Shown one piece after another: positions 29,416 to 52,638 of a stretch of 64,000 bases of DNA (the stretch's first letter is position 1; every line of letters starts with the position of its first letter). The stretch is from Candidatus Oxydemutator sp. (GTDB taxonomy: Bacteria; Pseudomonadota; Gammaproteobacteria; Poriferisulfidales; Oxydemutatoraceae). Made by a program: the position numbers and the translations under genes. The notes beneath the pieces were generated by a model. The model ran no database searches and was not told the DNA's origin. It saw only the letters and a program-made list of their open reading frames with translations. The DNA lies in the NCBI GenBank assembly GCA_965203445.1, contig OZ241883.1, forward strand, positions 96,001 to 160,000, given 5' to 3'.

Positions 29416-29441
29416 GCGCCACCCATTCGAGGAGAGGTTCG

Positions 29442-32042
29442 ATGCACAACGAAGCCGACAACAGCGACCACACCGAAAAAAACGCGCGGCAAACGCGCGA
29501 AGCGTGGGGCAAAACAAACAACGAGAAAGGCGAATTTCATCCGCTCGCCCATCACTGCATGGACGTCGCGGCGGTGTTCGCACGAATGATGAAACTGCCG
29601 GTCATCCGCAACCGCATGGAAACGGCGGCGGAGCGCCCGTTGACCGACGTGGACAGCGAGCGATTGTCGGCCCTGGTCTTCCTGCACGACGTCGGAAAGT
29701 TGCATCCCGGTTTTCAGGCCAAGGGTTGGCCGCCCGCACTGTGGCGCAGGGAACGATGCGGGCACTCGAAAGAGGGTTGGGCATTCTTGCAGTTAGCCGC
29801 AAGCCTGCCTGAGCATCCATTCCACAAAACCATGCGGGAGATGATGACATGGGGGCAGGCGGTGGTCGGACTCCTCGGCGCCGCCCTGGCACACCACGGG
29901 CAACCCGTTGGTCAACCGACCGACCCAACACTTGTAGATTGGGACCGACCATCCCTGCCCCACTACCAATGGCGCGAGGAAGCAGGCGTCATGGGAAAAG
30001 CCATGCGCAGATGGTTCGCCCGCGCCTTCGAGACGGGAGGTGCGGACTTGCCGGACAAACCACAATTCCACCACCTGGTCGCCGGACTTATCGCGCTCTC
30101 GGACTGGATTGGTTCGGACACGAGATTCTTCAAGTATCAGGCGCCTTTCACCTTGGACTACGACTCCGAGGCGCATGGAAACGCAGCGACGGCGCTGAAA
30201 GAAATCGGATTGGAACTGGATGAGGCGGCTTTCCAGCCTGCGCCGAGTTTTGCGAAGCTGACGGGACATACCAAACCAAATGCGGCGCAGTGTGTGGTGG
30301 GCAACGTCGAGCCGGAGGCGCGGCTTCTGATTCTCGAAGCCGAGACGGGATCGGGCAAGACCGAAGCCGCCCTGTGGCACTTTACGCAACTGCTCGCCGC
30401 CGGCAAAGTGTCCGGCCTTTACTTTGCAGTGCCGACGCGCGCCGCGGCCAGGCAGCTGCACTTGCGCGTCCATAGGATGCTGTCGCATGCGTTCGATGAA
30501 CAATTGCCTGAAGCCGTGTTGGCTATTCCGGGCATGTTGCGAGCGGGAGATTTCGAAGGCCGACGCCTGCCCGATTGGAAAGTCCTGTGGGATGACGCCG
30601 ACTCGCAATCAGCCCCGCGACGATGGGCCGCCGAGCATGCGACGCGGTTCCTGGCAGCGCCGGTCGCCGTCGGCACGGTGGATCAGGCGATGCTCGCAAG
30701 TCTTCAGATAAAACATGCGCACCTGCGAGGCAGTGCGCTGAACCGCAGTCTTCTGGTCATAGACGAGGTTCACGCGTCCGATGCCTACATGACCGAGATT
30801 CTGAAACGGCTCACGGAGGAACATCTGGCCACCGGGGGATACGCGATGCTGATGTCCGCAACGTTAGGCGCACGGGCGAGGTCGCGCTTAACCGGCGAGG
30901 TTCTGCCAAGCTTTAAGGTTGCCAGTGAAACACCTTACCCGGCTGTCTGGATCCAGGGAGAGCCTGGCCCGCGCGCCGTGGCGAGCGCGGAACACCCCAG
31001 GCAGGTACATCTCGAAACCGTCCCGACGATGGATCCGGCGGAGGCGGCAAAGAAAGCGATTGCGGCGGCGGAACGAGGCGCGCGCGTTCTGGTAATCCGG
31101 AACACGGTGGATAAGGTGGTAGAGACTTGGCGCGCGACGAGGGAGGCGGGCAAGAGTTCTCTGCTGTGGCAAGTGGCGGGAGGTCCGGCGCTGCACCATG
31201 GACGTTTTGCGGTCGAGGATCGCGCTCTGCTCGATGAAGCGGTCGAAAAAACACTCGCCCCATATAGATTACGAAAGACGCAGGGTTGCATCGTGATTGG
31301 CACGCAAACACTGGAACAGTCGCTCGATATTGACGCTGACCTGCTCATCACCGATCTTTGCCCGATAGACGTGCTGCTACAACGGATCGGGCGGCTCCAC
31401 CGCCACGACCTGCCCAGGCCAGACGGTTTTGAAACCGCCCACACTTGGATATTATTGCCAGAGAATGGTTTGGAACCTCTCACGAAACCAGATTTCTGTA
31501 ACGGGTTGGGTAGATGGAAAGACAAAGATGGAATTAACGGTATTTATCAGGATCTTGCAGGACTGGAATTGACCAATCGGCTGATCAAGGAAAGTCCCGT
31601 CTGGAGAATACCGGAGATGAATCGCGCATTGGTGGAGGGCGCCACTCACCCGAACTGCATTGAAGCACTAATAATGGAAATGGGGAGAGAATGGGATAAA
31701 TATAACAAGGACTTACATGGTTCCGAAATGGCGCAGAGGATGATCGCCGAGATCAACGTGTTGGATCGAGGGGAGGAGTATGGCGGTGAAAGCTTTCCCA
31801 GTGCAGATGAAAAAATTATGACTCGCCTGGGCGAGGAAGGAGTAATCCTGTCATTCGAGCCATCGCCCGGCCCCTTCGGCAAACCAGTGACCCGAATCGC
31901 TTTGCCGGCACGACGGTCTCATGGAATAATGGAAGAGGACCTGGTAAAAATTGAAAAAGAGGAAAATGGCCTGATTTTATCGGTCGCCGAGAAGCGATTT
32001 CGATACTCGCGTGAGGGGCTGATATACTTAAAGGGTTTATAA
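29442..32042 (+). CDS. cas3: Cas3 HD nuclease-helicase
   Basis: WGK..HPLAHHCMDVA, LHDVGK, SDWIGS, AETGSGKTE, IDEVH, SAT, QSLDIDAD, QRIGRLHRH; GGAG RBS-like sequence before ATG 29442. Confidence 0.97.
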   Translation: MHNEADNSDHTEKNARQTREAWGKTNNEKGEFHPLAHHCMDVAAVFARMMKLPVIRNRMETAAERPLTDVDSERLSALVFLHDVGKLHPGFQAKGWPPALWRRERCGHSKEGWAFLQLAASLPEHPFHKTMREMMTWGQAVVGLLGAALAHHGQPVGQPTDPTLVDWDRPSLPHYQWREEAGVMGKAMRRWFARAFETGGADLPDKPQFHHLVAGLIALSDWIGSDTRFFKYQAPFTLDYDSEAHGNAATALKEIGLELDEAAFQPAPSFAKLTGHTKPNAAQCVVGNVEPEARLLILEAETGSGKTEAALWHFTQLLAAGKVSGLYFAVPTRAAARQLHLRVHRMLSHAFDEQLPEAVLAIPGMLRAGDFEGRRLPDWKVLWDDADSQSAPRRWAAEHATRFLAAPVAVGTVDQAMLASLQIKHAHLRGSALNRSLLVIDEVHASDAYMTEILKRLTEEHLATGGYAMLMSATLGARARSRLTGEVLPSFKVASETPYPAVWIQGEPGPRAVASAEHPRQVHLETVPTMDPAEAAKKAIAAAERGARVLVIRNTVDKVVETWRATREAGKSSLLWQVAGGPALHHGRFAVEDRALLDEAVEKTLAPYRLRKTQGCIVIGTQTLEQSLDIDADLLITDLCPIDVLLQRIGRLHRHDLPRPDGFETAHTWILLPENGLEPLTKPDFCNGLGRWKDKDGINGIYQDLAGLELTNRLIKESPVWRIPEMNRALVEGATHPNCIEALIMEMGREWDKYNKDLHGSEMAQRMIAEINVLDRGEEYGGESFPSADEKIMTRLGEEGVILSFEPSPGPFGKPVTRIALPARRSHGIMEEDLVKIEKEENGLILSVAEKRFRYSREGLIYLKGL

Positions 32043-32052
32043 GATAGACCTT

Positions 32053-32081
32053 TTGCAATACCCATTACTCGGCGCTATACT
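32053..32081 (+). promoter_or_regulatory. Sigma70-like promoter for the cascade operon
   Basis: TTGCAA-N17-TATACT in the cas3-cas8e intergenic region. Confidence 0.7.
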
Positions 32082-32120
32082 GAAAAGAGAGAAGCCCGCG
32101 GTTGTCGAGCAGTTTATCAA

Positions 32121-33722
32121 GTGAATCTCATCACAGACCCAATTCTGACCCTCACGCTCACCGACGCGTCGGCCCCGACCGCGACTGGAGGCGACAAAGT
32201 GTCGTTGCCCGGCCTTTTTGCGGCGATGGCTCGAGAGGAAGTGCGAGGGTTTCCGGCCCTGCGTCCACACCAGCGCCCGGCGTGGCATATGTTCCTGGTA
32301 CAACTTGGCGCCCTTGCCCTTTGGGCCTCACGACGTGAACAACCATCGGAGGATACAAGCGATTGGGCGGCAATGCTGCGTAAATTGACTCCGGATTATG
32401 CCGACGACGAACCATGGCGATTGGCGGTCGCAGATCCATCCAAACCCGCCTTCCTGCAAGCTCCAGAACCGCAAGAAAAAATAAATTGGAAGGCAGTACC
32501 GACCCCGGATGCCCTCGACATGCTCATTACATCCTGCAATCATGACGTAAAAAAGGCTATCGCCAAACAGGCCGCAGCGGAAGATTGGGTTTATGCATTG
32601 GTATCACTGCAAACATGCGAAGGTTACAGCGGACCCAAAAACTACGGTATCGCCCGTATGAACGGCGGATCATCCAGCCGCCCGATGTTGGGGCTTGTGC
32701 CTTCCCGGAACGGGGACGCTTCTATCAATCCTTCTTCGTGGTGGACACGAGATGTGCGAATATTGATCAAAGATCGCGCGGATCCCGTGACACATACGAA
32801 TAGCGGGATTGGCAAAACAGGTGGGCACGCTCTTCTGTGGTGCTTGGACTGGCCAGAAGGGGAACAACTCGAACTGTCTGAGCTGGATCCATGGTTCATT
32901 GAGATTTGTCGCCGAGTACGACTGCTGGAAAATAACGATTTGATTTCCTCGCAACGCGGTACGTCGAAAACAGAACGAATCAATGCCAAAGACTTTCAGG
33001 GTAATCTGGGCGATCCGTGGGCGCCTGTTGAAAAAAAGGAAGGTAAGAACCTTACCCTAAGCAGCGCAAACTTCGATTATAGGAAAATCAATGATTTACT
33101 TTTCTCCGGAGATTGGAAGGTGCCGTTACTCGCCCAGGCACAAGATGATGAAACCAGCGATATGCTTTTAGTGACCGAAGCTTTTTCGCGCGGAAACGCC
33201 AAAACCGAGGGTTTCAAATCCCGCGTCGTGCCGGTCCCAGGCCATATCGTACCGCTGTTTTCGTCAGATACCATGGCAACGCTTGCCGAGTCCCAGATAA
33301 AGGAAATCAAAGGCTTCGATAAGGCTTTGCGATACGCAATCGCGTTGGTCGCCGCCCACGGCGACCGGGAAAACATACAGCGTTCGCACTATAGCTTCGC
33401 CGATTCTGCAACCGGGCATCTCAATCGCGAGGCGGACAGGCTGTTTTTTCGACACTTGTGGTGGCGAACCGCAGCCCACTCGCAAAGCGACGAGCAACGC
33501 TTTGAAGCCAAATGCCGCTTCCTCAAATCCATGTATGAGGTAGCGAAATCTTCATTAGAGGCCGCACTGCCGACAATTCCCTGTCCGACAATGCACAAAA
33601 TGAAAGCCAGAATCCGGGCGCGGCGTGCGTTCTTTCAAAAGCTGAGAAAAGACGAAGGCTGTCGTGATCTGTTCAACTGCCCTGGTCTGTTTAACAGGGA
33701 GGAATCCGATGTCGCAGTATAA
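32121..33722 (+). CDS. cas8e: Type I-E large subunit Cse1/Cas8e
   Basis: NLITDP, LRPHQRPAWHMFLVQL, PAFLQ, NYGIARMNGG, DPW; position after cas3. Confidence 0.9.
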   Translation: MNLITDPILTLTLTDASAPTATGGDKVSLPGLFAAMAREEVRGFPALRPHQRPAWHMFLVQLGALALWASRREQPSEDTSDWAAMLRKLTPDYADDEPWRLAVADPSKPAFLQAPEPQEKINWKAVPTPDALDMLITSCNHDVKKAIAKQAAAEDWVYALVSLQTCEGYSGPKNYGIARMNGGSSSRPMLGLVPSRNGDASINPSSWWTRDVRILIKDRADPVTHTNSGIGKTGGHALLWCLDWPEGEQLELSELDPWFIEICRRVRLLENNDLISSQRGTSKTERINAKDFQGNLGDPWAPVEKKEGKNLTLSSANFDYRKINDLLFSGDWKVPLLAQAQDDETSDMLLVTEAFSRGNAKTEGFKSRVVPVPGHIVPLFSSDTMATLAESQIKEIKGFDKALRYAIALVAAHGDRENIQRSHYSFADSATGHLNREADRLFFRHLWWRTAAHSQSDEQRFEAKCRFLKSMYEVAKSSLEAALPTIPCPTMHKMKARIRARRAFFQKLRKDEGCRDLFNCPGLFNREESDVAV

Positions 33723-34293
33723 CGATACGATAAGAAAGACGGTTCTCAATGCAACCGAAACGATTCAACACCTCGGGCCCGGCCCGTTGGCCGAGTTACG
33801 ACGGATGAAAGAAGAACGAATCGCAGCGCCTGCCTTCTGGAAGCTGGCCGTTGCCCACCCATACACAATAGGACGCGAGGAAAACGGGCAGACGTGGGTG
33901 GCCATCGTTCGCATCATCGCCATATTGATGCCAAAAGGAGATCCCGGCCGGCGCCCACCTCTGCACGATTCCAAACGGCCATTAGGTGAAGTGCTGTGCG
34001 ACGGCGGTAACCCCGATTGGCGGCCGGACAGCGCCGAAAATCCGAAGCCGGTATTCAGCGAACGACGTCTGATGCAACTTCTTTCGGCACGTGGCCGGCA
34101 GCGAGAAGTTCTACTGACCCGCGCGGCACGAGCCATCGCGCACAGCCGTAGACCAGACAGCGGGGTCAACACTGTGGACGTGGCGTACACTTTGTTGATG
34201 CCCAAAAGCGAAAGACAGTTGGCAGAACCGTACTATCGCCGTCTTGACGGCGGCAAACGGAGCGCCAATGAACCCAAAGGAGAAACTGCCTGA
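33709..34293 (+). CDS. cas11: Type I-E small subunit Cse2/Cas11
   Basis: GPLAELRR, FSERRLMQLL, terminal YY; between cas8e and cas7. Confidence 0.85.
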   Translation: MSQYNDTIRKTVLNATETIQHLGPGPLAELRRMKEERIAAPAFWKLAVAHPYTIGREENGQTWVAIVRIIAILMPKGDPGRRPPLHDSKRPLGEVLCDGGNPDWRPDSAENPKPVFSERRLMQLLSARGRQREVLLTRAARAIAHSRRPDSGVNTVDVAYTLLMPKSERQLAEPYYRRLDGGKRSANEPKGETA

Positions 34294-35450
34294 TGAACCA
34301 ACCACGCTTCCTGCAAATCCACACGCTGACCCCCTACACCGCCGTCCTGCTGAACCGGGATGACAGCGGACTGGCAAAGCGCCTGCCTTACGGAGGCGCG
34401 CTACGCACGAGAATATCGTCTCAATGCCTCAAGCGGCACTGGCGGATCGCCGAGGACCCGTACGCGCTTGGCAACATCGAAGGTGTGAAGGCCGCAACTC
34501 GGTCGCGTGAACTGGTAACCAAAAAAGTTATAGACCCTTTGCGCGAACAATTCTCTAAGGAAATCGTTGATGCAATAGAACCGGCATTCCAGGAGGCCGT
34601 CTATGGCAACAAAGGCAAAACTAAGGATAGCCGTCCAACTCTGCTATTCGGCGAACCTGAGCTGAGGTGGCTCAAGAAAGAAGCAGAACGCTTAGCCAAA
34701 GATGCAAAAGACAATGTGGAGACCGCCAAAAAGAAAGCCGAAGAATGGAAAGGGAAATCCAGCAAAGAGAGCGGCAAGCACGCCTTGAAATTCAAGCAGA
34801 ACATCAAAGCCATGCGTAAAATTACGGCTCTGCCGGCCGGCCTGACGGCAGCGTTGTTCGGACGAATGGTGACATCGGATCCCGATGCCAACATCACGGC
34901 GCCAGTACACGTCGCCCATGCGTTCACCGTCCATGAAGAGGAACCGGAAAGCGATTATTTCACGGCCGTTGACGATCTCTCTTGCGACGAGCCGGGCGCG
35001 GATACGATTCAAGAGACCGAACTGACCTCCGGACTTTTCTATGGTTACGTGGTCGTTGATCTTCCGGGGTTGTCGGGAAACCTCGGAGAGGATGACGAGT
35101 TGGCGGGGCGGGTATTGCACAACTTGATTCACCTGATTGCGGAAATTTCTCCAGGTGCGAAGCTCGGCTCCACGGCTCCCTATGGTCGAGCGTCCTTTAT
35201 GCTGCTGGAAGCCGGGGACAGACAACCGCGCAGCCTGGCGGAAGCCTACCGCAGTCCATGCGAACCTCATCTCGGACGCGCCATCGAGGCATTGTCCGAA
35301 CATCTCGAGACGCTGGACAAAACCTATGCTACCGGAGAGGAGCGACAGGTATTGTCACTGCTCGAGAGCAAAGTACCGCGAGCCGACCGAGGATCGCTGG
35401 CCGAGCTCGCAAAGTGGGCACAAAATCTTCCGAGCAGGATGGCCTCGTGA
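34293..35450 (+). CDS. cas7: Cas7 (Cse4/CasC)
   Basis: FLQIHTL, LNRDDSGLAK, RISSQCLKRHWR, ALFGRM, VAHAFTVH, DYFTAVDD. Confidence 0.96.
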   Translation: MNQPRFLQIHTLTPYTAVLLNRDDSGLAKRLPYGGALRTRISSQCLKRHWRIAEDPYALGNIEGVKAATRSRELVTKKVIDPLREQFSKEIVDAIEPAFQEAVYGNKGKTKDSRPTLLFGEPELRWLKKEAERLAKDAKDNVETAKKKAEEWKGKSSKESGKHALKFKQNIKAMRKITALPAGLTAALFGRMVTSDPDANITAPVHVAHAFTVHEEEPESDYFTAVDDLSCDEPGADTIQETELTSGLFYGYVVVDLPGLSGNLGEDDELAGRVLHNLIHLIAEISPGAKLGSTAPYGRASFMLLEAGDRQPRSLAEAYRSPCEPHLGRAIEALSEHLETLDKTYATGEERQVLSLLESKVPRADRGSLAELAKWAQNLPSRMAS

Positions 35451-36190
35451 CACATCGTTGGCTTGTCTTGCGATTTGAGGCGCCGTTAATGGCTTTCGGG
35501 GGCGTGGCGATAGATCAGGTCGGCCCGACACGGGACTTCCCGGCGACTTCGATGCTGGCCGGGCTTATCGGCAATGCGCTCGGCTGGCACTGGTCGGAAG
35601 GCACAAAACATCAGACGATCCAGGATCGCATAATTTTCGCCGCCCGACGCGAGCGGGAGGGTGAGTTATTGATGGACACCCAAAACGTGAAACTTGAGAA
35701 GAATGACAAAGGTTGGACGACTAGCGGCGAGCGGGAGGTTCGAACTGTGGGCAAGGAAAAGTATAGTGCGCCTCATCGGCGTCGGCGCGACTACCATGCA
35801 GACCTCTCGTTGCGCGTTGTGCTGCGTCTTGAACCGGCGACGGAAACGCCGACGCTCGACGAGCTGGCGGATGCTCTCGAGCGACCGGCACGCCCATTGT
35901 TCCTCGGACGCAAACCCTGCCTTCCTTCGACGCCTCTGCTTGCAGAGGAGGCATCCAGATGGGTGTCAGGTGATACCGCCTACCAGGCACTTCAAGCCGT
36001 ACCTAAGAGGCCCGATTGCCGAGACAATGATCGTCTGCGAGCACTCTGGCCTATTGGCGAAGGACCTGACACCGGCGACGACGTGGACTGCATCACCGAT
36101 TTGCCGGACTTGCGGAATTGGCGCACCGGCCTGCATGGTGGTTCGCGCCAAGTCGTACAAGGTTGGATTGCCTCGCCCACGGACAAATAA
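35447..36190 (+). CDS. cas5: Cas5 (CasD)
   Basis: LVLRFEAPLMAFG, GLIGNALGW, RDYHAD, LFLGRKPCLPS. Confidence 0.95.
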   Translation: MTHRWLVLRFEAPLMAFGGVAIDQVGPTRDFPATSMLAGLIGNALGWHWSEGTKHQTIQDRIIFAARREREGELLMDTQNVKLEKNDKGWTTSGEREVRTVGKEKYSAPHRRRRDYHADLSLRVVLRLEPATETPTLDELADALERPARPLFLGRKPCLPSTPLLAEEASRWVSGDTAYQALQAVPKRPDCRDNDRLRALWPIGEGPDTGDDVDCITDLPDLRNWRTGLHGGSRQVVQGWIASPTDK

Positions 36191-36192
36191 CC

Positions 36193-36963
36193 ATGCTGAA
36201 TCTGGTTCGTGTGCCAATAGATACCAACAAGCTCGCACGTTGGGGGGCGGAGCGCGGTTGGGCACGGCACAGAGGCCGCAACGTCGCCTTTGATGAAGGG
36301 CGCGCATTGCATCACCTAGTGCATGAAGCATTAGGCCCCGGCGTCTTCCGGTCATTTCGATTTTTCGTTCCACCCCGGCGAACCAACGGCAATCTTTACG
36401 CTTATTCGGCGTTGGATTCGGGAGCACTGCGCGCCGCTGCTGAAAATCATGCCTTGCCGGATCACCTCAAGGTTCTGCCTCCTGATCAGATAGAGAGCAA
36501 ACCAATGCCAGAAAGTTGGCGCGCAGGACAACGTTTGGGGTTTGATCTCCGCGTGCGCCCAATCCGGCGGCTTGCAAGCCCGTCAGGAAATTTCAGCAAA
36601 GGCAAAGAAATTGACGTATTTCTTGCGGATGCTTTGCGCAAACGTCCCGCCACCACCGCCAAGGAAGCGGCGACGGAAAGCCGAACGCGTGAAGTCGTAT
36701 ATCTTGACTGGCTGACGGAACGCCTTGCCCCCGCCGCCAAGCTTGCCCCCTCCTCAAGTCGCCTGACTCGTTTCCGCCGCGTCCGCGTCGCTCGCGGAGA
36801 CCGGGCTCCCGAAGGCCCGGATGCGACTATTCACGGAACACTCGTCGTTGCCGATCCGGCTGCCTTTTCCGCTCTGTTGGCACGCGGGGTGGGACGACAT
36901 CGAGCCTACGGCTACGGCATGTTGCTTCTGCGTCCGCCAAACCGTCCCGCGCCAAAGCAATAA
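36193..36963 (+). CDS. cas6e: Cas6e (Cse3/CasE)
   Basis: LGFDLRVRP, WL, G-rich loop GVGRHRAYGYGMLLL. Confidence 0.95.
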   Translation: MLNLVRVPIDTNKLARWGAERGWARHRGRNVAFDEGRALHHLVHEALGPGVFRSFRFFVPPRRTNGNLYAYSALDSGALRAAAENHALPDHLKVLPPDQIESKPMPESWRAGQRLGFDLRVRPIRRLASPSGNFSKGKEIDVFLADALRKRPATTAKEAATESRTREVVYLDWLTERLAPAAKLAPSSSRLTRFRRVRVARGDRAPEGPDATIHGTLVVADPAAFSALLARGVGRHRAYGYGMLLLRPPNRPAPKQ

Positions 36964-37832
36964 TGCTCAAGGGTCGGCTCGGCCTTGATAGCGCAAAGGT
37001 TCCGCACAAGGATCGAGCGGGGCTGCTCTACCTGGCTCGCGGGGCATTAACCGCGAAGGATGGTACGCTCGCTTTCGTCCAGAAAATGACGACAACGGCC
37101 GATGCACTCTCGCCTGGAGATTACGCCATCCCGCTCCAAGGCATTTCAATGATCCTGCTCGGTCCCGGCTCCACCGTCAGCCATGACGCACTAAGGCTCC
37201 TTGCCTATGCCCGCACGGCTCTTGCGGCGGTCGGGGAAGATGGCGTACGGCTTTACACCGCCCCACCCCTGATATCAGACCAATCTGATCTGGCGCGGCG
37301 GCAAGCGCGATTTTGGGCCGACGATAAGCAACGGCTGGAGATTGCACGGCGCATGTACGCCTGGCGCTTAAGAGAGGTTCTTCCACATCGTTCCCTTGAC
37401 GTACTTCGCGGAATTGAAGGTGCACGCATGAAAGAGAGCTATCGCTTGCTTGCCCAAAAGATCGGCGTAGCTTGGCACGGCCGCCGCTATGACCGCGCCA
37501 GGCCATACGCCGCGGACCTGCCTAATCAGGCGATAAACCACGCATCCAGTGCGGTAGAGGCCGCCGCCGCCATTGCCGTCGCCGCAACTGCAACCATCCC
37601 ACAGTTGGGCTTCATACATGAGGACCCGGGACAATCGTTTGTTCTGGATATCGCCGACCTCTACCGCGATGCCATAACGATTCCATACGCCTTTCGCGCC
37701 GCCAGGCATGCCGCCGAAAAGCCTGGCGTGAATATTGAGCGTATTACCCGTCGTTTGACCGGACAAGCACTGGCCCGCAAGCAAATCATTCCTGCGATGA
37801 TTGGCCGCATTAAATCCCTATTCACGGAATAG
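36963..37832 (+). CDS. cas1: Cas1 (type I-E)
   Basis: LLGPGSTVSHDA, LRGIEGARM, LGFIHE, FVLDIADLY. Confidence 0.97.
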   Translation: MLKGRLGLDSAKVPHKDRAGLLYLARGALTAKDGTLAFVQKMTTTADALSPGDYAIPLQGISMILLGPGSTVSHDALRLLAYARTALAAVGEDGVRLYTAPPLISDQSDLARRQARFWADDKQRLEIARRMYAWRLREVLPHRSLDVLRGIEGARMKESYRLLAQKIGVAWHGRRYDRARPYAADLPNQAINHASSAVEAAAAIAVAATATIPQLGFIHEDPGQSFVLDIADLYRDAITIPYAFRAARHAAEKPGVNIERITRRLTGQALARKQIIPAMIGRIKSLFTE

Positions 37833-37854
37833 ACAGAAAGAGGATAAACGTTCG

Positions 37855-38142: not shown

Positions 38143-38211
38143 ACATGGAGGCGATACAATTCGCCTCTCGTTCTTTAACAATATAGTAAAATCAAGCACA
38201 TATGGGATAGG
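38143..38211 (+). promoter_or_regulatory. CRISPR leader
   Basis: AT-rich; hairpin GAGGCGA/TCGCCTC (38148-38167), TCTTTAACAAT, IHF-like AATCAAGCACATA (38190-38202) ending 9 bp before repeat 1. Confidence 0.8.
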
Positions 38212-41200: not shown

Positions 41201-44200
41201 GGGATAGACCCCACCTGATGCGCGGGATCGGTATCCGACAACCGGTTCCCCCGCACGCGCGGGGATAGACCCTGAAGGTAAGAACCTGCCGCGCCGTGCT
41301 CGAGGGTTCCCCCGCACGCGCGGGGATAGACCCGAATGCCTTCGGCGTATTGATCAGGCGCCGTGGGTTCCCCCGCACGCGCGGGGATAGACCCACAAAC
41401 CCCGCCCTCACAATCGAAAACGACGCGGTTCCCCCGCACGCGCGGGGATAGACCCACAAACCCCGCCCTCACAATCGAAAACGACGCGGTTCCCCCGCAC
41501 GCGCGGGGATAGACCCCAGGTCGGGACTGGCGGCAGTACTACAACCCGGGTTCCCCCGCACGCGCGGGGATAGACCATCCGATCCCTGCGCGCCGTCGGC
41601 CTTGAAGTAGGTTCCCCCGCACGCGCGGGGATAGACCCGCCAATACGCCCCCCACGCGCGCGCGCCCAAGGGTTCCCCCGCACGCGCGGGGATAGACCCA
41701 TTATCCTGACAACATCGGCAGCAAATACGCCGGTTCCCCCGCACGCGCGGGGATAGACCTCACCGCCTGTTTTCTTCTCCGGGGCGCGCACAGGTTCCCC
41801 CGCACGCGCGGGGATAGACCCCTCCTCTTTCAGCGTCGCGACGCGCCAGGAGAGGTTCCCCCGCACGCGCGGGGATAGACCCTATTGACCATGGTGCCGG
41901 AGGGCACCCCTATAGGTTCCCCCGCACGCGCGGGGATAGACCCTCCTCGAGATACTCCATGCCCTTATCCCCCGGGGTTCCCCCGCACGCGCGGGGATAG
42001 ACCCAAATCAGGGCCTGCTTCTCGCTGTTCGCGCCGGGTTCCCCCGCACGCGCGGGGATAGACCCAAATCAGGGCCTGCTTCTCGCTGTTCGCGCCGGGT
42101 TCCCCCGCACGCGCGGGGATAGACCCGACGCAGGCCGGCGCGGCGGGCACCCAGGCGGGGTTCCCCCGCACGCGCGGGGATAGACCCTTGTGAGTATCCT
42201 GTGGATAAGCTGTTAGTCGGGTTCCCCCGCACGCGCGGGGATAGACCGCTATGAGATGCCGGATTCTTGGGCGTGTTCGGGGTTCCCCCGCACGCGCGGG
42301 GATAGACCCCGGCGCCCGACGGCAGCCGCTATCGCTACTTTGGTTCCCCCGCACGCGCGGGGATAGACCCGCCGTGCAGCTGCACTTCTTCCAGCGCGGC
42401 GCGGTTCCCCCGCACGCGCGGGGATAGACCTGTTGCAGGGCGTCGAGCAAAAGCGCGGCCTGAGGTTCCCCCGCACGCGCGGGGATAGACCCCGGTCGAG
42501 CGCCTGGCGGCCTTCGGTGGCATGGGTTCCCCCGCACGCGCGGGGATAGACCTGAAATATTCGGCGGCTGGATCAGGCCGCGCTTGGTTCCCCCGCACGC
42601 GCGGGGATAGACCCTACAGCGGCAAGTCTTTTATGCCCTTTCAGTGGGTTCCCCCGCACGTGCGGGGATAGACCGGACTGGTCCCGTCTTACCGGCAATG
42701 TGCCGTGGGTTCCCCCGCACGCGCGGGGATAGACCCTGACGCGCAGTAGCAAGCTCCACCACAGCCTGGGTTCCCCCGCACGCGCGGGGATAGACCTCTG
42801 CGTCACGAGGAGCCTGGACACTTTACCTCGGTTCCCCCGCACGCGCGGGGATAGACCCCACGGCTGAAGCCAAGTCAGCCTCATCGAGAAGGTTCCCCCG
42901 CACGCGCGGGGATAGACCTTTTACCCTCAGAAAACAAAAGCACAGCACGAGGGTTCCCCCGCACGCGCGGGGATAGACCAGATCCAGCTTGTTCGAGGCA
43001 ATAGCCACCTGGGGTTCCCCCGCACGCGCGGGGATAGACCTAGAGGGCCGTTGAGTCTTTCCCCCCGGAAACGGGTTCCCCCGCACGCGCGGGGATAGAC
43101 CTCTTGCCTTCAGAAAACAAAAGCACAGCACGAGGGTTCCCCCGCACGCGCGGGGATAGACCGTGATCGACTTGATAGACGCCGCCGCGGCTAAGGGTTC
43201 CCCCGCACGCGCGGGGATAGACCTCCGTCCTACAGCCTGGCCACCCTCGAGCAGGCGGTTCCCCCGCACGCGCGGGGATAGACCCTTGGGCAGAGCCGGT
43301 ATAGAGAGTATCTATGCGGTTCCCCCGCACGCGCGGGGATAGACCGGTAGCTACGCTGGTTGTTGCCGCGCTTGTGGCGGTTCCCCCGCACGCGCGGGGA
43401 TAGACCCGAGGCCGGCCCCGGAAAGCTCGGGCCGCAAGTGGTTCCCCCGCACGCGCGGGGATAGACCCGTGTACGACCTGCCGCCCAAGCGCACCGTCAG
43501 GGTTCCCCCGCACGCGCGGGGATAGACCCCGAAGCCGCGGTAGGGCACCAGCGCGCCCGCGGGTTCCCCCGCACGCGCGGGGATAGACCCTTGCACGAGC
43601 CCCGCGACGGCGCGGTCGTGAGGGTTCCCCCGCACGCGCGGGGATAGACCCTTGTGCAGGGGCCGCCGGCCGGCGACGGATACGGTTCCCCCGCACGCGC
43701 GGGGATAGACCCCTGAAGCGCATGACCGCGGATTATCACGACCTGGTTCCCCCGCACGCGCGGGGATAGACCCCACCCTTCCCTTCCATCATCACCAGAC
43801 AGACGGGTTCCCCCGCACGCGCGGGGATAGACCCCTGAAAAGGAGAAAAAGGATGACAAACAACGAGGTTCCCCCGCACGCGCGGGGATAGACCTCGAGA
43901 AGCCGGCCCGGAATCCGACGCCCTCAGGGTTCCCCCGCACGCGCGGGGATAGACCCTTTCCGCGCACAGCGCGCCCGTACGCGTGCACGGTTCCCCCGCA
44001 CGCGCGGGGATAGACCCGCGAGCTGGTCTTCGATCCGCACGAGGATCTGGGTTCCCCCGCACGCGCGGGGATAGACCTATCACCGGCAGCGCCGGCGATC
44101 AGCAAACGCAGGTTCCCCCGCACGCGCGGGGATAGACCCTCCAAGTCGCACGCGCGCGCAACTCTGCGTGAGGTTCCCCCGCACGCGCGGGGATAGACCC

Positions 44201-47200
44201 TCCAAGTCGCACGCGCGCGCAACTCTGCGTGAGGTTCCCCCGCACGCGCGGGGATAGACCCTTTCGCCGCTGCGCCCGGACGCGGTGCTGACCGGTTCCC
44301 CCGCACGCGCGGGGATAGACCCGCGGACAGAGTTGACGGCCTCGAGCGCGAGACGGTTCCCCCGCACGCGCGGGGATAGACCCGAGGGCGCGATCGCGCG
44401 CGCGCTGCCCGGCGAGGTTCCCCCGCACGCGCGGGGATAGACCGTATGACGCGCTCAGCGGCTTTCCGATGGGTGCGGTTCCCCCGCACGCGCGGGGATA
44501 GACCTTGACGAGGCCGCGCTGCGGCGCTGGGCGGTCTGGTTCCCCCGCACGCGCGGGGATAGACCTTTCCTGAAAGAACGGAAGCCAGCAAGGCCAAGGG
44601 TTCCCCCGCACGCGCGGGGATAGACCCCCTGCTAAGCAGTTTATTTTTGATCTTGAGCTGGTTCCCCCGCACGCGCGGGGATAGACCGGCTGCGGGCGAT
44701 TTTCTTTTCCGCAAGCGTGGGGTTCCCCCGCACGCGCGGGGATAGACCCGTGAGCTGACGACGGAGCGGCGAAAGCCGAAAGGTTCCCCCGCACGCGCGG
44801 GGATAGACCCGCAGCACGCACTCAACCCGGCGCGCCGGCGGTGGTTCCCCCGCACGCGCGGGGATAGACCCGTCTGCGGCTCGCGCTCGCCGGGCCAGCG
44901 CACGGTTCCCCCGCACGCGCGGGGATAGACCGTGGTCGGGACCGACGACGGCGCGCGGTTCGCGCGGTTCCCCCGCACGCGCGGGGATAGACCCGGGTGG
45001 GCGCCGGCGGCGCTCAGGCGCTACGTGGTTCCCCCGCACGCGCGGGGATAGACCCCAGGCGTTCGGCCAGGCGCACACGCCGTTTTAGGTTCCCCCGCAC
45101 GCGCGGGGATAGACCCCAGCTCTTTGAAGTGATCCTCCGGATAGTCCGGGTTCCCCCGCACGCGCGGGGATAGACCCTGATGATCCGCCCGACCGCCGAG
45201 CAGGCGCGGGGTTCCCCCGCACGCGCGGGGATAGACCTCGCGCGCCTTGTATCCCATGCCCTCTATAATCGGTTCCCCCGCACGCGCGGGGATAGACCCT
45301 TTCTCCCAAAACCTTGTGCGCCGCGAAGCCCGGTTCCCCCGCACGCGCGGGGATAGACCTCTTCCGAGCGGTTGTGGGGCCGGGGCGGCAAGGGTTCCCC
45401 CGCACGCGCGGGGATAGACCCAGGCGCCGTGGGCGCCCCATCATCGGCGACGCGGTTCCCCCGCACGCGCGGGGATAGACCCTCGTTCAGGTCATCCGAA
45501 AAAGCATAGCAACAGGTTCCCCCGCACGCGCGGGGATAGACCTGCCCGCCGGCACGTTGCGGGGCACGTCGCGGGGGTTCCCCCGCACGCGCGGGGATAG
45601 ACCATAAACATTGAAAAACTCACGCATGGTTGGATTGGTTCCCCCGCACGCGCGGGGATAGACCTTAAAAATTTCATCGAATACTCCATAAATCAACGGT
45701 TCCCCCGCACGCGCGGGGATAGACCATAATGGCAGATTTTAATTCTGCTTCTGCATCAGGTTCCCCCGCACGCGCGGGGATAGACCCTGCCCCGCCGAAA
45801 CGACGCCGTATTTCCATTTGGTTCCCCCGCACGCGCGGGGATAGACCTTATTATAGCCGCCCTGGAGGAAGGGTGCTTAGGGTTCCCCCGCACGCGCGGG
45901 GATAGACCCTTTCTTAGCTCTCCCGGACGGACTTTCTAATTGGTTCCCCCGCACGCGCGGGGATAGACCTCAATCGAAAAGGCCTTTTGCGATTGGAAAT
46001 TCGGTTCCCCCGCACGCGCGGGGATAGACCCGAAATCTTGCAGCAACCCGGCACACTTCTACCGGTTCCCCCGCACGCGCGGGGATAGACCCAGGGGCGA
46101 GTCGTAGCAGCTCACCCTGCCTGGGGTTCCCCCGCACGCGCGGGGATAGACCCTTGCCGCTGAATCTCTCCGGGATCTCCCCGGCGGTTCCCCCGCACGC
46201 GCGGGGATAGACCCGCGCCCGCTGAGCTTCAAAAAATCCTGGCTGGGGTTCCCCCGCACGCGCGGGGATAGACCTTTGGCAGGCAACGAGAGCGCCGGCT
46301 ACGCGCGGGTTCCCCCGCACGCGCGGGGATAGACCGTGAAACGGACGGCGACAATCAAAGAGTCCTCGGGTTCCCCCGCACGCGCGGGGATAGACCATTG
46401 AAACTGATAAAACAGTAGCGGGCTTAGTTGGTTCCCCCGCACGCGCGGGGATAGACCCGCGGTTTTGATAAACCGGGTTAGCGCTATCATGGTTCCCCCG
46501 CACGCGCGGGGATAGACCCGGCGGCTATCACTAACTAAAAGGTGAAAAAATGGTTCCCCCGCACGCGCGGGGATAGACCTCGGTTTTCCTGCATTTCTGC
46601 CAGCGCGTATAGGGTTCCCCCGCACGCGCGGGGATAGACCCGAGCTGGAATACTTGTGGTGGGAAATAGACACGGTTCCCCCGCACGCGCGGGGATAGAC
46701 CTTGAATAATAGTTTGGAAGTGTTGAAAGATATTGGTTCCCCCGCACGCGCGGGGATAGACCGTCATATGCCAATAACGGATGCCACGCGATACCGGTTC
46801 CCCCGCACGCGCGGGGATAGACCCGAAAGAAATATCTCGTGCGTGCCGCCGGGCGAGGTTCCCCCGCACGCGCGGGGATAGACCCGTAACGCTGGCGGGG
46901 CGCCCCACGATCGTCGCGGTTCCCCCGCACGCGCGGGGATAGACCCGGGCGGTGCGCTTCAAGCACGGCGGCGCTTGGGGTTCCCCCGCACGCGCGGGGA
47001 TAGACCGAAATATCTCTCGATCCAGGTCTGCGCGCGCGAGGTTCCCCCGCACGCGCGGGGATAGACCCTTTGGCCAATGAGCAGCGCCACCCAACCGCAA
47101 GGTTCCCCCGCACGCGCGGGGATAGACCCAATAATCACAGTACCGATCCCGATAAGTAACTGGTTCCCCCGCACGCGCGGGGATAGACCCTTCGCAAATC

Positions 47201-47311
47201 CCGATATTCTCGTTCTGTAAAAGGTTCCCCCGCACGCGCGGGGATAGACCCACGACAAGGGCATGATCGAGCACATCAGTGGCGGTTCCCCCGCACGCGC
47301 GGGGATAGACC
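38212..47311 (+). CRISPR. Type I-E array, 150 repeats / 149 spacers
   Basis: 28-nt repeat GGTTCCCCCGCACGCGCGGGGATAGACC with 61-nt period; 33-nt spacers (one 34-nt, 44932-44965); two truncated repeats (39493, 39548) and one loop variant (42661). Confidence 0.99.
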
Positions 47312-47526
47312 TGATGCGTAGCATCGTCTTGTGGTTTGTCAGACGCGGGGTGGTGTTCTGGATTCTATTCTTTCCTTGCCTCTTCTCTCGTGGGCTGGAT
47401 CATCGTTGCCACACCAGCGATGCTCGATTTCACCAGTATAGCCAACTCCTTAGCAACTGAAACCGTAAAACGAAGTGTAGAAAGCCCATCCGAAAGAAGT
47501 CTCACCAGTATAGCCAACTCCCTAAA

Positions 47527-47823
47527 TCATTGAAAGACCTTCAGCGCAATGGCGATGAGCACCGCGGATTGAATGCCCGACACCCAGAATATGTACCTGA
47601 CCTGCGCCTTCAACACGGCGATGTCCGACCGCATGGCCGCCATCTCATCGCGCACGGCTGCAATTTCGTCGCGCACGGCTGCAATCTCCGTGGTGAACTT
47701 GCCGCTATCGCGGCTGCGGTCAACGACTAGGCTTATGGCTTTGGCTTGGTCATGCGTGAGGCCGACGGCCTCGAGCTCCTCGGCCGCGCCCAGGGTGTCG
47801 AAATGTCGGGCAGTCGCTTCCAT
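47527..47823 (-). CDS. DUF1640/CCDC90-like coiled-coil protein with C-terminal membrane anchor
   Basis: FDTL....L.AVGL...QAKAI head, EIAAVRD heptad repeats, hydrophobic tail; TGCTATAAT 7 nt before ATG. Confidence 0.75.
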   Translation of the reverse strand: MEATARHFDTLGAAEELEAVGLTHDQAKAISLVVDRSRDSGKFTTEIAAVRDEIAAVRDEMAAMRSDIAVLKAQVRYIFWVSGIQSAVLIAIALKVFQ

Positions 47824-47924
47824 GGGGCAGATTATAGCAGATTGGCGGCGGCCGGGAAAAACGGTGTACGGGGCCACCACATTCTGGACAAATGGGGTAG
47901 TTGTTTTTGGATGGCTAGTCACGG

Positions 47925-48944
47925 GGTGATATTCCCCAGGCTCCGGTGCGGGCGCTCGCCGTTGTAGCGTTCCAGATACCTGAACAACGCATCGTTGAAA
48001 GCATACAGATCATCAAATAATCTGTCTTCCCGGTAGTCCACGAACTCCTCCTGCACGGTTCTGTTGAAGCGCTCGCCCAGTGTTCATCTTTGGGCGTTCC
48101 TCTTCGGACAACGCGGGTAAGTGTAACAGTGTTCTATACCCGCACGCTTCAGGTATTCGTCGAACTCTCCCTGATACTCGCTGCCGTTGTCCGTCAGCAC
48201 TTTCTCGATGCGCCCCGGAAACAAGGGTTCCCTTCGCAAGCCTTAGGCTTGCTTGCCTCTTCGCAACCCCGGATGAGGAGCGTTCAATGGCTGCGTCGCG
48301 ACTGCTGGCGCGGCGACTGGCCAACGCCAACGCAGGACGACACTTCGGGAACGCCCGTGGGGGCGTTCCCTTGCTTTTGTTCTGGGCGAAGCGCACTATC
48401 GTATCAACCGCCACGCAATGGCCCGCATGCCCGGCATGGAAGTCTTTGCCCAAGCGCTGGCGCTGCTGGCGCTTGAACTCCTTGCGCCGACCGCGACTGT
48501 CCAGGCGAACCGCCACCTTGCGCAGTACGACACTTCGGGAACGCCCGTAGGGGCATTCCCTTGCCTTGGGGCACCATCAGGCGAGAGAGCAATCCCGCGC
48601 CGCACTCGAAGCGCATCCTACCTAAATTCGGATGGCGCTCACGCAAGCGTCTGATCTCTTGGACCACCGCCACCGGCCACCGCCGCACCCGCCTGTTCTT
48701 GGGCGCCTTGCTGACGTCGTGCAACCCACTGAGACCGCCTTCGCGGTGGCGCTTGCGCCATGCATACAGGGTGCTGCGCGAAACCCCGAAGGCGTCTTGG
48801 GTTGCAGGCAAGCCATGATTATCCCAGAATATGAGGGCGTCGTATTTGCGTTCGGCACTCGTTGCCATGAGCCTCCATTTTGAAAGCGTAGGAAGCTATT
48901 TTACGCAACCCTGGGACGCGGTAGCCGACGTGCTTTATTTGCAT
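47925..48944 (-). pseudogene. IS481-family DDE transposase, frameshifted
   Basis: HTH AFGVSRSTLYAW, VAVDT, VLTDNGSEY, ERFNRTVQEEF, YNGERPHRSLG spread over different frames. Confidence 0.85.
48331..48575. repeat. Two REP-like hairpin copies inside the transposase (48331-48374, 48521-48575)
   Basis: CGCAG(G/T)ACGACACTTCGGGAACGCCCGT(G/A)GGGGC(G/A)TTCCCTTGC twice; reverse complement of the units at 22717-22836. Confidence 0.85.
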
Positions 48945-49046
48945 GTCGGCTACCTTTCTGCGGCTAAGATATTGTCCAGAATGTTTCTGGCCCTATACAG
49001 GTCCGCTGCCGGATATGCCGGGGGATGCTATAATCCCTCCCCGATC

Positions 49047-49289
49047 ATGAGCACAATAGCCCTCTACCAACTGCTCAGGCGCATACCCGACGTCACCGAA
49101 GACGAGGCGCAGGCCGCGGCAGACTCGATTGCCCATGTCGACGAGGTGGCGACCAAAACCGATTTGCTCAAATTAAAAACTGAGCTCAAAGACGAGATGC
49201 ACATCCTTGAGACGAAGCTGATCAAGCTGATACTCGGCTCTGCCGGCTTTGTTGTCATCGCGGTCAGCACAATAGTGAAGCCCACCTGA
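49047..49289 (+). CDS. Small coiled-coil protein with C-terminal TM (DUF1640/CCDC90-like)
   Basis: MSTIALYQLLRRIPDVTEDEAQAAADSI...VATKTDL, hydrophobic tail; paralog of 15963-16196. Confidence 0.78.
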   Translation: MSTIALYQLLRRIPDVTEDEAQAAADSIAHVDEVATKTDLLKLKTELKDEMHILETKLIKLILGSAGFVVIAVSTIVKPT

Positions 49290-49567
49290 TATGCGCCGCC
49301 GGTGGCGCCCGGCGCAGGCCTTCCATCCTCTCGGCCGCCCGAACCGTCGAACTCCGACGACCTGTAGCATTCCCGAAAATGCTTGTTTTGCGCGACATCC
49401 TCAATTCCGGGGATAGGTATCTGTGCTTGTACTTCCACCGGTATAGCCCCATTGAACGCAGTAGTTGTAGCCGGGCAGCCGTCTTTTACAGTACTGGGTT
49501 CCCGAAGGGACTCATATACAACAATGCACCAAAACCAGGGGAATAAGTTTGCGGCAAGTGCGACGTT

Positions 49568-50197
49568 TTAATAGTCATATGAGAAGGCTTCGATATCCCT
49601 TGCAAAACAGCGGCGCACGACGTCTATGCCGGCGTCGTCGTAATAGTCCCGGTAGTGGCCGCGTTGCGACGCGTTGACGTGGGGTAGGACGGGCGCGGTC
49701 ATCCGTCTATTAAAAACATGACCGCATATCGTCGCAAAGTCGTCGTTCAAATTCTCGAAACGGGCGACAAACGTGACCAGGACCTTGCCGTCTTCGTCGC
49801 TGATCCAATCCATGCAGGGCATGAACATCTTGGGATTGTCGTAGTAGCGGGAATCGCGCCTGCCGTAGGCCAACTCGACCCAGCGGTTGAAGGGCACGGG
49901 CTTGGTCTCGAGCAGCGTCGCGTCCTTGCCGAGACGGTAATGATAATGGGAAACCACCCTGTCGAACGGATTGCGCACCACCGCAAACGTATATTTCCGG
50001 CACCACCGTCGCAGGCCGATCCTGGCAATCTTCTCGCGCGCGGTGACGTGCTCAAACGGTATTTTCAGAGCCGACTCGATACTGCGTCCGGCGGTCTTGT
50101 TGATGTGGATGAAGGCAAAATCGTCGAAGCGCTCGTGGCGCCACCTGCTCGCGGCGTCCTGCCAACGGCGGATTCTTTGCGCGCGAAATAACTTCAT
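49568..50197 (-). CDS. Sulfotransferase (Sulfotransfer_2 family)
   Basis: FIHINKTAGRSI, FAVVRNPFDRVVSHY, RFENL, DIEAFSY. Confidence 0.87.
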   Translation of the reverse strand: MKLFRAQRIRRWQDAASRWRHERFDDFAFIHINKTAGRSIESALKIPFEHVTAREKIARIGLRRWCRKYTFAVVRNPFDRVVSHYHYRLGKDATLLETKPVPFNRWVELAYGRRDSRYYDNPKMFMPCMDWISDEDGKVLVTFVARFENLNDDFATICGHVFNRRMTAPVLPHVNASQRGHYRDYYDDAGIDVVRRCFARDIEAFSYDY

Positions 50198-50323
50198 CGG
50201 CTGGCGTGTCCGCGTCCATCGCGGATACTCGCGCCATTATCGCACGCATCCACCCATTCGCTGCCCGTCGCCGTCGCCCTCCCGTGCGCGCGACGGCGCG
50301 AAATTGTGCGATAATGGCGCGCC

Positions 50324-52634: not shown

Positions 52635-52638
52635 CGCG

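Follow-up and report, generated by a model that had tools for sequence, protein, structure and literature searches.

Structure of the tgt-yajC locus

The window (the whole 64,000-nt stretch of Candidatus Oxydemutator sp. DNA analysed here) carries queA, tgt, yajC, secD and secF in the same orientation, with tgt and yajC separated by a CRISPR-Cas island lying between two copies of an 11-bp direct repeat. Host genes and boundary features are as follows.

27215–28285, + strand: queA (PF02547, 396 bits)
28282–29415, + strand: tgt, queuine tRNA-ribosyltransferase (PF01702, 503.8 bits), TGA at 29413–29415
29419–29429, + strand: left copy of the 11-bp direct repeat, CCACCCATTCG, starting on a codon boundary of the tgt frame
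50250–50260, + strand: right copy of CCACCCATTCG, an exact match to the left copy
50261–50323, + strand: native tgt-yajC spacer, open in the tgt frame, its end resembling the C-terminal tail of Tgt in congener G001
50306–50321, + strand: yajC promoter-like 16-mer GTGCGATAATGGCGCG, with TG-extended -10 GATAAT, 8 nt 5′ of the ATG
50324–50728, + strand: yajC (PF02699, 99.6 bits)
50760–53565, + strand: secD (50760–52634) and secF (52639–53565)

The cas operon and CRISPR array

The left part of the island consists of a cas gene set followed by a long array.

29430–29437, + strand: SD of cas3, AGGAGAGG
29442–32042, + strand: cas3, HD nuclease plus helicase (PF18019 111.8 bits, PF22590 101.3 bits, TIGR01587 174.4 bits; NF007248)
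32053–32081, + strand: sigma-70-like promoter candidate TTGCAA-17-TATACT in the cas3-cse1 spacer (consensus scan only)
32121–33722, + strand: cas8e/cse1 (PADLOC Cas8e 516.9 bits; TIGR02547)
33664–34293, + strand: cas11e/cse2 (ORF limits; true start probably near 33720; PADLOC Cas11e 144.8 bits)
34293–35450, + strand: cas7e (PF09344 314.8 bits; TIGR01869 308.7 bits)
35258–36190, + strand: cas5e (ORF limits; domain from residue 67; TIGR01868 195.4 bits)
36118–36963, + strand: cas6e (ORF limits; PF08798 and PADLOC Cas6e, each 99.9 bits)
36963–37832, + strand: cas1e (TIGR03638, 281.1 bits)
37801–38142, + strand: cas2e (TIGR01873, 95 bits)
38143–38211, + strand: AT-rich leader, 69 nt, with a terminator-like hairpin at 38147–38168
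38212–47311, + strand: type I-E CRISPR array, 148 repeats of 28 nt with a 61-nt period

Cas3 with HD and SF2 helicase domains, ordered Cascade genes, Cas1e/Cas2e and an adjacent array identify this as a type I-E system, complete by gene content and with ~150 repeats, for which interference and adaptation are putative functions. The genes, their order and the position of the array 3′ of cas2 match the type I-E system of E. coli. The nearest Cas3 is 79% identical and the next ~70%. A casposon or CAST was rejected, as Cas1 is Cas1e and no PolB or Tns family was found among the island ORFs.

All but one of the array repeats are identical (147, plus one with a single mismatch), and two defective repeats lie inside 39460–39596. 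The units between repeats are 33 nt long in 145 of 147 cases and include five duplicated spacers; two spacers are identical over 33/33 nt to sites in the chromosome of the organism itself.

A mosaic tail between the array and yajC

The remaining 2.9 kb of the island is a mosaic.

47430–47536, + strand: orphan mini-array of two ~35-nt repeats 72 nt apart, related to the second CRISPR array of the genome
47527–47922, - strand: small coiled-coil/TM protein ('DUF1640-like', sub-threshold), likely true start 47823
47865–48999, - strand: decayed IS481-family IS with terminal inverted repeats, a broken transposase and two inserted 47-nt hairpin repeats
49047–49289, + strand: second small coiled-coil/TM ORF (the 5′ part of the 48831–49289 ORF is IS-derived)
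49568–50197, - strand: sulfotransferase (Sulfotransfer_2; PF03567, 38.4 bits vs cut-off 22)
50230–50245, - strand: inverted copy of the yajC promoter 16-mer (CGCGCCATTATCGCAC on the + strand), before the sulfotransferase

The second CRISPR array, to which the orphan repeats are related, lies at 2.2788–2.2827 Mb of the genome. The first-pass annotation had labelled small tail ORFs as DUF1640 genes and another as a sulfotransferase. Only the latter label holds at the score given above, its best relative having 31–37% identity. The 47527–47922 ORF, the first ~19 codons of which lie within the IS end, reaches 17.4–18.8 bits with PF07798 (cut-off 33.5) over 24 residues, and 49047–49289 has no match to this family.

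That annotation had also missed the IS481-family DDE transposase copy at 47865–48999. Its fragments score 46.5 and 41.2 bits with NF033577, below the cut-off of 224 because the gene is broken. Copies of the family are present elsewhere in the genome, and the three intact ones examined are all flanked by 5-bp duplications (TTGCA, TTCGC and GAACT). The island copy lacks a target duplication, suggesting IS-mediated deletion or recombination.

At the right tip, the 16-nt inverted repeat formed with the yajC promoter-like sequence is perfect and unique in the genome, and a gapped extension towards the sulfotransferase ATG is only weakly significant (p=0.02 and 0.08).

Island boundaries

The left 11-mer begins 3 nt 3′ of the tgt stop and the right one lies inside the native tgt-yajC spacer, confirming the exact repeat proposed for both ends. 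Between the tgt stop TGA (29413–29415) and the ATG of cas3 at 29442 lie GCG, the 11-mer and AGGAGAGGTTCG, giving the 26-nt spacer previously noted. By arithmetic, deletion of 29430–50260 would leave a tgt-yajC spacer of 77 nt, in line with the short spacer noted earlier for deletion between the copies. The 11-mer occurs three times in the whole 2,378,814-bp genome (expected ~1.7); two of these copies bound the island, the third (genome position 569162, minus strand) has no island beside it, and the window has one site with a single mismatch, at 13743. When the 26-nt tgt-cas3 and 126-nt sulfotransferase-yajC spacers were compared, an exact direct run of at least 11 nt had a probability of 0.0008 (20,000 shuffles) or 0.0028 (20,000 random genome segment pairs). 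Read in the tgt frame, the right flank has no stop over 28 codons and ends in DGAKLCDNGAP, resembling the G001 Tgt tail NDGELCNNAPP*. This argument carries little statistical weight, as open frames are frequent at 68% GC. Composition is foreign between the repeats, with 52–62% GC in the cas operon and 56–59% in the tail, against 65–70% in the flanks and 63.6% for the genome.

The island is probably not a self-mobile element. Scans of its ORFs (Pfam and NCBIfam) found no tyrosine or serine recombinase, as expected from the first-pass annotation, and no replication or transfer genes were found in it. The tRNA gene nearest to it is at 1859–1943. These features bear on whether the 11-mer could be the att core of a site-specific integrative island that has lost its integrase and mobility genes, e.g. 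when two IS481 copies in the tail recombined. The presence of an exact direct repeat at each end, improbable by the above test, would be accounted for, and an IS lacking its 5-bp duplication fits deletion of adjoining DNA. We nevertheless consider such an origin distinctly unlikely, given that no integrase remnant was seen in any ORF scanned, the target is not a tRNA or tmRNA gene, a third genomic 11-mer adjoins no island, and searches of other genomes found this island in none. Furthermore, the distances from the left repeat to the cas3 start (12 nt) and from the right repeat to the sulfotransferase start (52 nt) leave no space for arm-type sites.

Involvement of a transposase, with the 11 bp as its target-site duplication, or with cryptic ends used by the host IS481-family enzyme, appears less probable still. 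The 11-mer does resemble the core of the IS481-family left terminal repeat (CCACC-CATTC vs CCACCACATTC), at a score equalled by only 0.26% of random genomic 11-mers in a post hoc test. However, the 11-mers are direct rather than inverted, all three intact IS copies examined made 5-bp duplications, and the sole copy in the island is internal and decayed. The tips also lack terminal inverted repeats, in line with the first-pass annotation (best tip-to-tip alignment p=0.2, 12/30 tip bases identical). A DNA or composite transposon was rejected on the same alignment, the only transposase being that internal copy.

Relatives and sequencing runs

In two of the three congeners tgt directly adjoins yajC, overlapping it (ATGA) in G001 and separated by a 25-nt spacer in G003; the third, G002, is uninformative owing to contig breaks. 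Homologues of cas3 are missing from all three congeners and were found in 2/18 family members, as distant relatives (31–32% identity). The core of the yajC promoter-like 16-mer is conserved in G001 and G003. Their empty sites lack the 11-mer, which at face value counts against the single copy that the first-pass annotation expected there, although outside the promoter-like motif the spacers are too diverged to align (Tgt identity 76–78%) and hence to judge the 11-mer. Searches for a closer strain with an empty site returned none.

The suggestion that the island arrived as one unit by an unknown route is upheld only in part: the repeat-bounded DNA breaks up what in congeners is an unbroken tgt-yajC junction, but the tail is a mosaic. 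Under stepwise accretion in a plastic junction, the components of the island (cas operon plus array, small ORFs, IS and sulfotransferase) would instead be separate acquisitions. The 11-bp repeat would then date from only one of them, or from some local rearrangement that followed, and would mark the limits of no unit. Among 36 relatives from the order with both genes on one contig, the tgt-yajC gap is indeed highly variable (<200 nt in 14, 600–1000 nt in nine, ~2–6 kb in five, 12–19 kb in three and >0.5 Mb in five) and what it contains varies among lineages. The host-type repeats that make up the tail, the IS without target duplication and the inverted host promoter copy at the right tip are also as accretion would have them. 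Against it, the 11-mers sit exactly at the outermost transitions between native and non-native sequence, no relative with partial cargo was found, and tail GC is similarly low to that of the cas operon. We regard accretion as somewhat improbable.

Incorrect joining of tgt to a CRISPR-Cas contig during assembly is hardly credible. The assembly consists of one 2.38-Mb contig and is 100% complete, and an 8,581-nt short-read contig from run X1, which is probably the source sample and hence not independent, spans the left junction (28356–36936) with 0 differences. In an independent sponge-metagenome run (X3), cas-operon contigs have 92.7–97.7% identity and queA/tgt contigs ~95%, and this similarity argues that the island has been resident since before these strains diverged. 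Among the matches listed, contigs over the left part of the island have no joint at the 11-mer.

Proposed origin

The repeat, the abutment of tgt and yajC in congeners and the lack of a congener cas3 together point to insertion of a type I-E system at the 3′ end of tgt. Simple entry of foreign DNA in a single step is insufficient, because the right tip copies host sequence and host repeats lie inside. The mechanism and order of events we infer begin with a single non-site-specific recombination (illegitimate or microhomology-type) at the extreme 3′ end of tgt, in which 11 bp of host DNA would have been duplicated or would have served as the crossover site. The tail would then have been assembled or remodelled in the host lineage, with addition of the IS481-family copy, hairpin repeats and orphan repeats, and with an inverted duplicate of the yajC promoter of the host placed in front of the sulfotransferase. 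Taken as a whole (one illegitimate recombination, a host-remodelled tail and the wiring predicted below), we give this account about an even chance of being right.

A more specific version seems unlikely to us, namely that a promoterless cassette entered the last tgt codons through an 11-nt staggered break or microhomology, together with a templated inverted copy of the yajC promoter (MMBIR/templated insertion). If so, the insertion itself would have put both terminal genes under host signals: cas3 would depend on the queA-tgt operon, and the sulfotransferase on a second copy of the yajC promoter, which may be leaderless. The locus would then be a natural, junction-resolved case of an integrase-less defence island entering a core-gene junction and gaining expression.

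Predicted transcription

Under the broader account of illegitimate entry and a remodelled tail, the queA-tgt transcript would read through into cas3. This is plausible from the sequence, as 28800–29445, i.e. ~640 nt before cas3, contains no -10-like hexamer and no + strand terminator was identified before 30399. Genes cas8e to cas2e may be transcribed from the sigma-70-like candidate in the cas3-cas8e spacer and the array from its leader, while yajC-secDF probably retain their own promoter, abutting the yajC ATG. All of these assignments are predictions.

Comparison with known systems

Chromosomal type I-E loci without an integrase are already known, and apart from its junctions and the possible coupling of cas3 this is an ordinary type I-E locus. 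It differs from that of E. coli in that cas3 follows a housekeeping gene, tgt, at 26 nt with no recognisable promoter of its own, and in being bracketed by an exact 11-bp repeat and absent from all three congeners. As in core-genome hotspot defence islands of E. coli and Pseudomonas aeruginosa, a defence system without an integrase lies between core genes, in an interval that is likewise variable (here across the order), but here the exact junctions are visible, with their 11-bp repeat.

Related I-E operons were found on alphaproteobacterial plasmids, the repABC plasmid of Pontibrevibacter nitratireducens (NZ_CP049816.1) and p5 of Azospirillum argentinense (NZ_CP032326.1), in the same order and with DNA similarity of 68–70% over 24–34% of the 8-kb query. 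In the former, cas3 also closely follows an unrelated gene read in the same direction (repC, at a distance of 17 nt), whereas in p5 it has an upstream spacer of ~780 nt, unlike the island cas3. Both plasmids are replicons with rep/par genes, and the island has no such replication functions.

In Vibrio, CRISPR-Cas is reported on horizontally transferred, integrase-bearing genomic islands with direct repeats at their flanks (PMC6360697). The Oxydemutator island shares with these a CRISPR-Cas block between direct repeats, but lacks an integrase and a tRNA target.

The entry of CRISPR-Cas or defence islands without mobility genes into chromosomes can seldom be followed base by base. In this island the two junctions are intact and show the 11-bp repeat and, at one tip, the 16-nt host promoter sequence in inverted form, and the ancestral junction can be deduced from congeners. 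Given close empty-site strains, the locus could become a model case for illegitimate integration and the capture of a promoter.

That cas3 may be tied to a housekeeping operon, and that two spacers match the genome perfectly, raises the question of how interference stays harmless in a small-genome symbiont. The 33/33 matches fit poorly with constitutive expression of cas3 and Cascade unless the PAMs are non-permissive.

An insertion between tgt and yajC

queA, tgt, yajC and secD are contiguous in the congeners G001 and G003, with the tgt stop overlapping the yajC start in G001 (ATGA) and a tgt-yajC spacer of 25 nt in G003. The third congener, G002, gives no information on the junction because its contigs break at simple repeats: a poly-G run terminates the contig with tgt, and the one with yajC runs into a different gene within a GGC repeat. 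cas3 homologues are missing from all three congeners, and distant ones (31–32% identity) were found in only two of 18 family members. G+C content is 52–62% in the cas operon, 65–70% in the flanks and 63.6% in the genome. Congener synteny, the absence of cas3 and this G+C contrast identify the CRISPR-Cas block as an insertion in a once-continuous junction, in line with the first-pass annotation, which had the island interrupting queA-tgt-yajC. A literature search for a tgt-yajC island returned no relevant paper, as judged by title.

Across the wider order the tgt-yajC junction is plastic, as seen in the 36 of 40 relatives with both genes on one contig. Gap contents differ by lineage (DUF192; DHOR/imelysin; HTHP; Memo/AMMECR1-QueG-RmuC-AmiC with DUF4411/M78 modules). 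Stepwise accretion in this plastic junction is a possible but rather unlikely origin of the insert.

Distance from tgt to yajC in 36 relatives
Under 200 nt: 14 relatives
600–1000 nt: 9 relatives
About 2–6 kb: 5 relatives
12–19 kb: 3 relatives
More than 0.5 Mb apart: 5 relatives

The 12–19 kb intervals of genus g5 (G014, G011, G007) contain Memo/AMMECR1, CesT-like, QueG, RmuC, AmiC, TsaE and YjeF genes and a pair made up of DUF4411 and HTH/Peptidase_M78; this pair is triplicated in G011, and the G014 interval carries an additional 1035-aa N6-methylase-like protein.

The 11-bp repeat and the two junctions

An exact direct repeat of 11 bp (CCACCCATTCG; 29419–29429 and 50250–50260) bounds the island. 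On the left, tgt (stop at 29413–29415) and cas3 (ATG at 29442) are separated by 26 nt, which read GCG, then the 11-mer, then AGGAGAGGTTCG, and include a good Shine-Dalgarno sequence. On the right, the distance from the 11-mer is 52 nt to the start codon of the sulfotransferase gene (50197, minus strand) and 63 nt to the yajC ATG (50324). The 11-mer occurs three times in the genome (2,378,814 bp; ~1.7 expected). The two junction spacers, of 26 and 126 nt, had an exact run of at least 11 nt in common in 0.08% of 20,000 shuffles and in 0.28% of 20,000 segment pairs drawn at random from the genome, so the repeat is real and unlikely to have arisen by chance. Both the bounding repeat and the 26-bp distance from tgt to cas3, already claimed from first inspection, are thus upheld. 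A comparison of the two island tips showed no terminal inverted repeats.

The first base of the 11-mer is also the first base of a codon in the tgt frame. In this frame no stop occurs for 28 codons from 50250 onwards (PPIRCPSPSPSRARDGAKLCDNGAPCIP, then two stops). The end of this right flank can be aligned with the Tgt C-terminal tail of G001 (..NDGELCNNAPP, then a stop), and its DNA with both congeners around GTGC(G/A)ATAAT, 8–9 nt ahead of the yajC ATG. The right flank would fit a former tgt 3′ end plus spacer; the frame and tail argument carries small statistical weight, since open frames are common at this G+C content.

That the insert is an assembly artefact is scarcely credible: an 8,581-nt contig from run X1 (probably the source sample) covers 28356–36936 with no differences. 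Among the matches listed for contigs of four sequencing runs over 26000–38200 (left junction and cas operon), no joint or loose end falls at the left 11-mer, and no contig of runs X3, X4 or X5 bridges 29398–30123. Contigs carrying the 3′ part of tgt in two independent runs stop ~20 nt before the repeat (29398 in X3, 29397 in X4); these ends near 29397–29399 may reflect differences between strains, either in the Tgt tail or at the junction itself. A 23-nt exact pattern of right repeat plus native flank had no match in the metagenome contig collection. A scan of metagenome contigs by Tgt reached at best 64% identity among the best 80 loci of 598 relatives, and therefore yielded neither a close strain nor an empty site.

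Type I-E system and related loci

The insert contains the following features, those from the orphan repeats onwards lying in a 2.9-kb tail between the array and the right 11-mer.

29442–38142: complete type I-E set, cas3, cas8e, cas11e, cas7e, cas5e, cas6e, cas1e, cas2e
Between cas2e and array: AT-rich leader, 69 nt
38212–47311: I-E array, 148 repeats of 28 nt, 147 identical
47430–47536: two orphan repeats of ~35 nt, 72 nt apart, just past the array
Tail, after the orphan repeats, minus strand: small coiled-coil/TM ORF
47865–48999: decayed IS481-family element
Tail, after the IS481 element: second small coiled-coil/TM ORF
49568–50197, minus strand: Sulfotransfer_2 gene

In itself the system is a type I-E locus of the ordinary kind; the genes that define a casposon, CAST, prophage or integrative element were not found among the island ORFs scanned, and these readings were therefore rejected. 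Two more repeats, both defective, lie within a 137-nt unit (39460–39596), and five spacers are present twice through tandem duplication (e.g. 40512–40661). Spacer G+C is 0.55–0.57 at the leader end, 0.63–0.67 in the middle and 0.50–0.54 distally. In 146 units, the 28-nt repeat is followed by C (95), T (31), G (15) or A (5). Two spacers (44810–44842 and 45543–45575) match the genome itself over 33/33 positions: spacer 107 at genome 789534 and 799239, within a large repetitive region (~760–808 kb), and spacer 119 at genome 941823. Upstream flanks of the matched sites read ..GTA+C and ..CGG+T, and the matches may be tolerated self-targets.

In X3, an independent sponge metagenome, contigs over cas3, cas8e, cas7e, cas5e/6e and cas1-2 have 92.7–97.7% identity to the window and those over queA and tgt ~95%, which suggests that the locus is older than the split of these strains; such an age fits its ~149 spacers. 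The nearest Cas3 among 5.8 billion proteins has 79% identity, followed by many at ~60–70%. A scan of genome contigs by Cas3 gave one locus, in Rhodomicrobium (49% identity), which says nothing about the donor. I-E operons resembling this one are found on alphaproteobacterial plasmids. Of three related loci examined, two likewise have cas3 close behind a gene of the same direction. In Pontibrevibacter nitratireducens (repABC plasmid NZ_CP049816.1 of 33.9 kb, 19187–19205) it starts 17 nt after repC, as here with no room for its own promoter, and in Rhodomicrobium L042 19 nt after an ORF (ORF level only), but in Azospirillum, unlike here, it is not tightly behind the upstream gene.

Mosaic tail of the insert

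The orphan repeats match the repeats of a second CRISPR array at ~29–30 of 35 positions; a third, partial copy of this family lies at 49433–49448. The second array (at least 46 repeats of ~36 nt, period ~72; genome 2.2788–2.2827 Mb), between RNase III/Era and ArgJ/SecA, adjoins Cas4 and a 1361-aa RRXRR/HNH protein (Cas9-like), the latter suggesting a type II-B locus. Both small tail ORFs have several paralogues elsewhere in the genome; the DUF1640 label first given to them is backed only by sub-threshold scores. A PADLOC profile scan of four tail ORFs gave no matches.

At least five other genomic copies of the island IS481 family were identified (85–98% identity), and three intact copies are flanked by 5-bp target duplications (TTGCA, TTCGC, GAACT). 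The island copy has no such duplication (AACGG vs GGTCC), and therefore adjoining DNA has probably been lost or recombined. A site-specific island that lost its integrase, possibly through this IS, is a doubtful explanation. The left 11-mer (29419–29429) resembles the core of the IS481 left terminal repeat (47874–47884; CCACC-CATTC vs CCACCACATTC), a likeness equalled by 0.26% of random genomic 11-mers (p = 0.0026, post hoc); however, this IS makes 5-bp duplications and the two 11-mers are direct, and a transposase-mediated event is very improbable. Two insertions of a 47-nt element with a GGGAACGCCCGTGGGGGCGTTCCC hairpin (48331–48377 and 48521–48567) interrupt the IS481 copy; the element recurs at ~25 further genomic places and is possibly a repeat of the REP or MITE type.

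The island sulfotransferase has no orthologue in the relatives (best match 31–37% identity), some sulfotransferase family member being present in 14 of 40 (15 of 41 with the source genome): 14 of 18 genomes of the host's own taxonomic family versus none of 22 from the other families searched. A second Sulfotransfer_2 gene (25449–26222, minus strand; 26% identity to that of the island) lies just upstream of queA, with a weak homologue at the equivalent place in G001. Ahead of the island gene, CGCGCCATTATCGCAC (50230–50245) repeats, in inverted orientation and without mismatch, the promoter-like 16-mer of yajC (50306–50321). The genome has no further copy of this 16-mer, and a GTATCC follows in both. 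A gapped extension of the inverted repeat beyond 16 nt, over ~52 nt towards the sulfotransferase ATG, is weakly significant (p = 0.02 in shuffles, 0.08 in random segments). The last ~20–50 nt inside the right repeat are therefore host-derived.

The recurrence of the IS family and hairpins in the genome, the paralogues of the small ORFs and the 16-mer copy speak against a plain block of foreign DNA. The earlier proposal that Cas genes, array, small ORFs and sulfotransferase arrived as one unit is thus supported only in part. We favour, with moderate confidence, one illegitimate insertion event at the 3′ end of tgt, which would have either duplicated 11 bp of host DNA or crossed over within them, the tail being remodelled locally afterwards or at the same time; the locus would be fixed at present. 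Passages of PMC10121019 describe chromosomal I-E loci that lack an integrase, and defence hotspots in which no means of mobilisation can be identified. Unusual here is a junction resolved to the base pair, as an 11-bp duplication plus an inverted promoter copy, with cas3 abutting tgt.

Predicted expression of cas3 and yajC

No hexamer matching TATAAT at four or more of six positions (with A2 and T6) occurs in 28800–29445, and consensus scans of the plus strand found no promoter-like site before 31902 and no terminator before 30399. With neither ahead of it, read-through from queA-tgt would be the simplest reading for cas3. The same scan placed TTGCAA-17-TATACT at 32053–32081, ahead of cas8e. 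A TG-extended GATAAT stands 8 nt ahead of the yajC ATG. This −10-like motif (GTGC(G/A)ATAAT, at 8–9 nt) is conserved across the three species compared, no Shine-Dalgarno sequence precedes the start codon, and a leaderless yajC mRNA is possible; the G001 copy of the motif falls within the coding tail of tgt.
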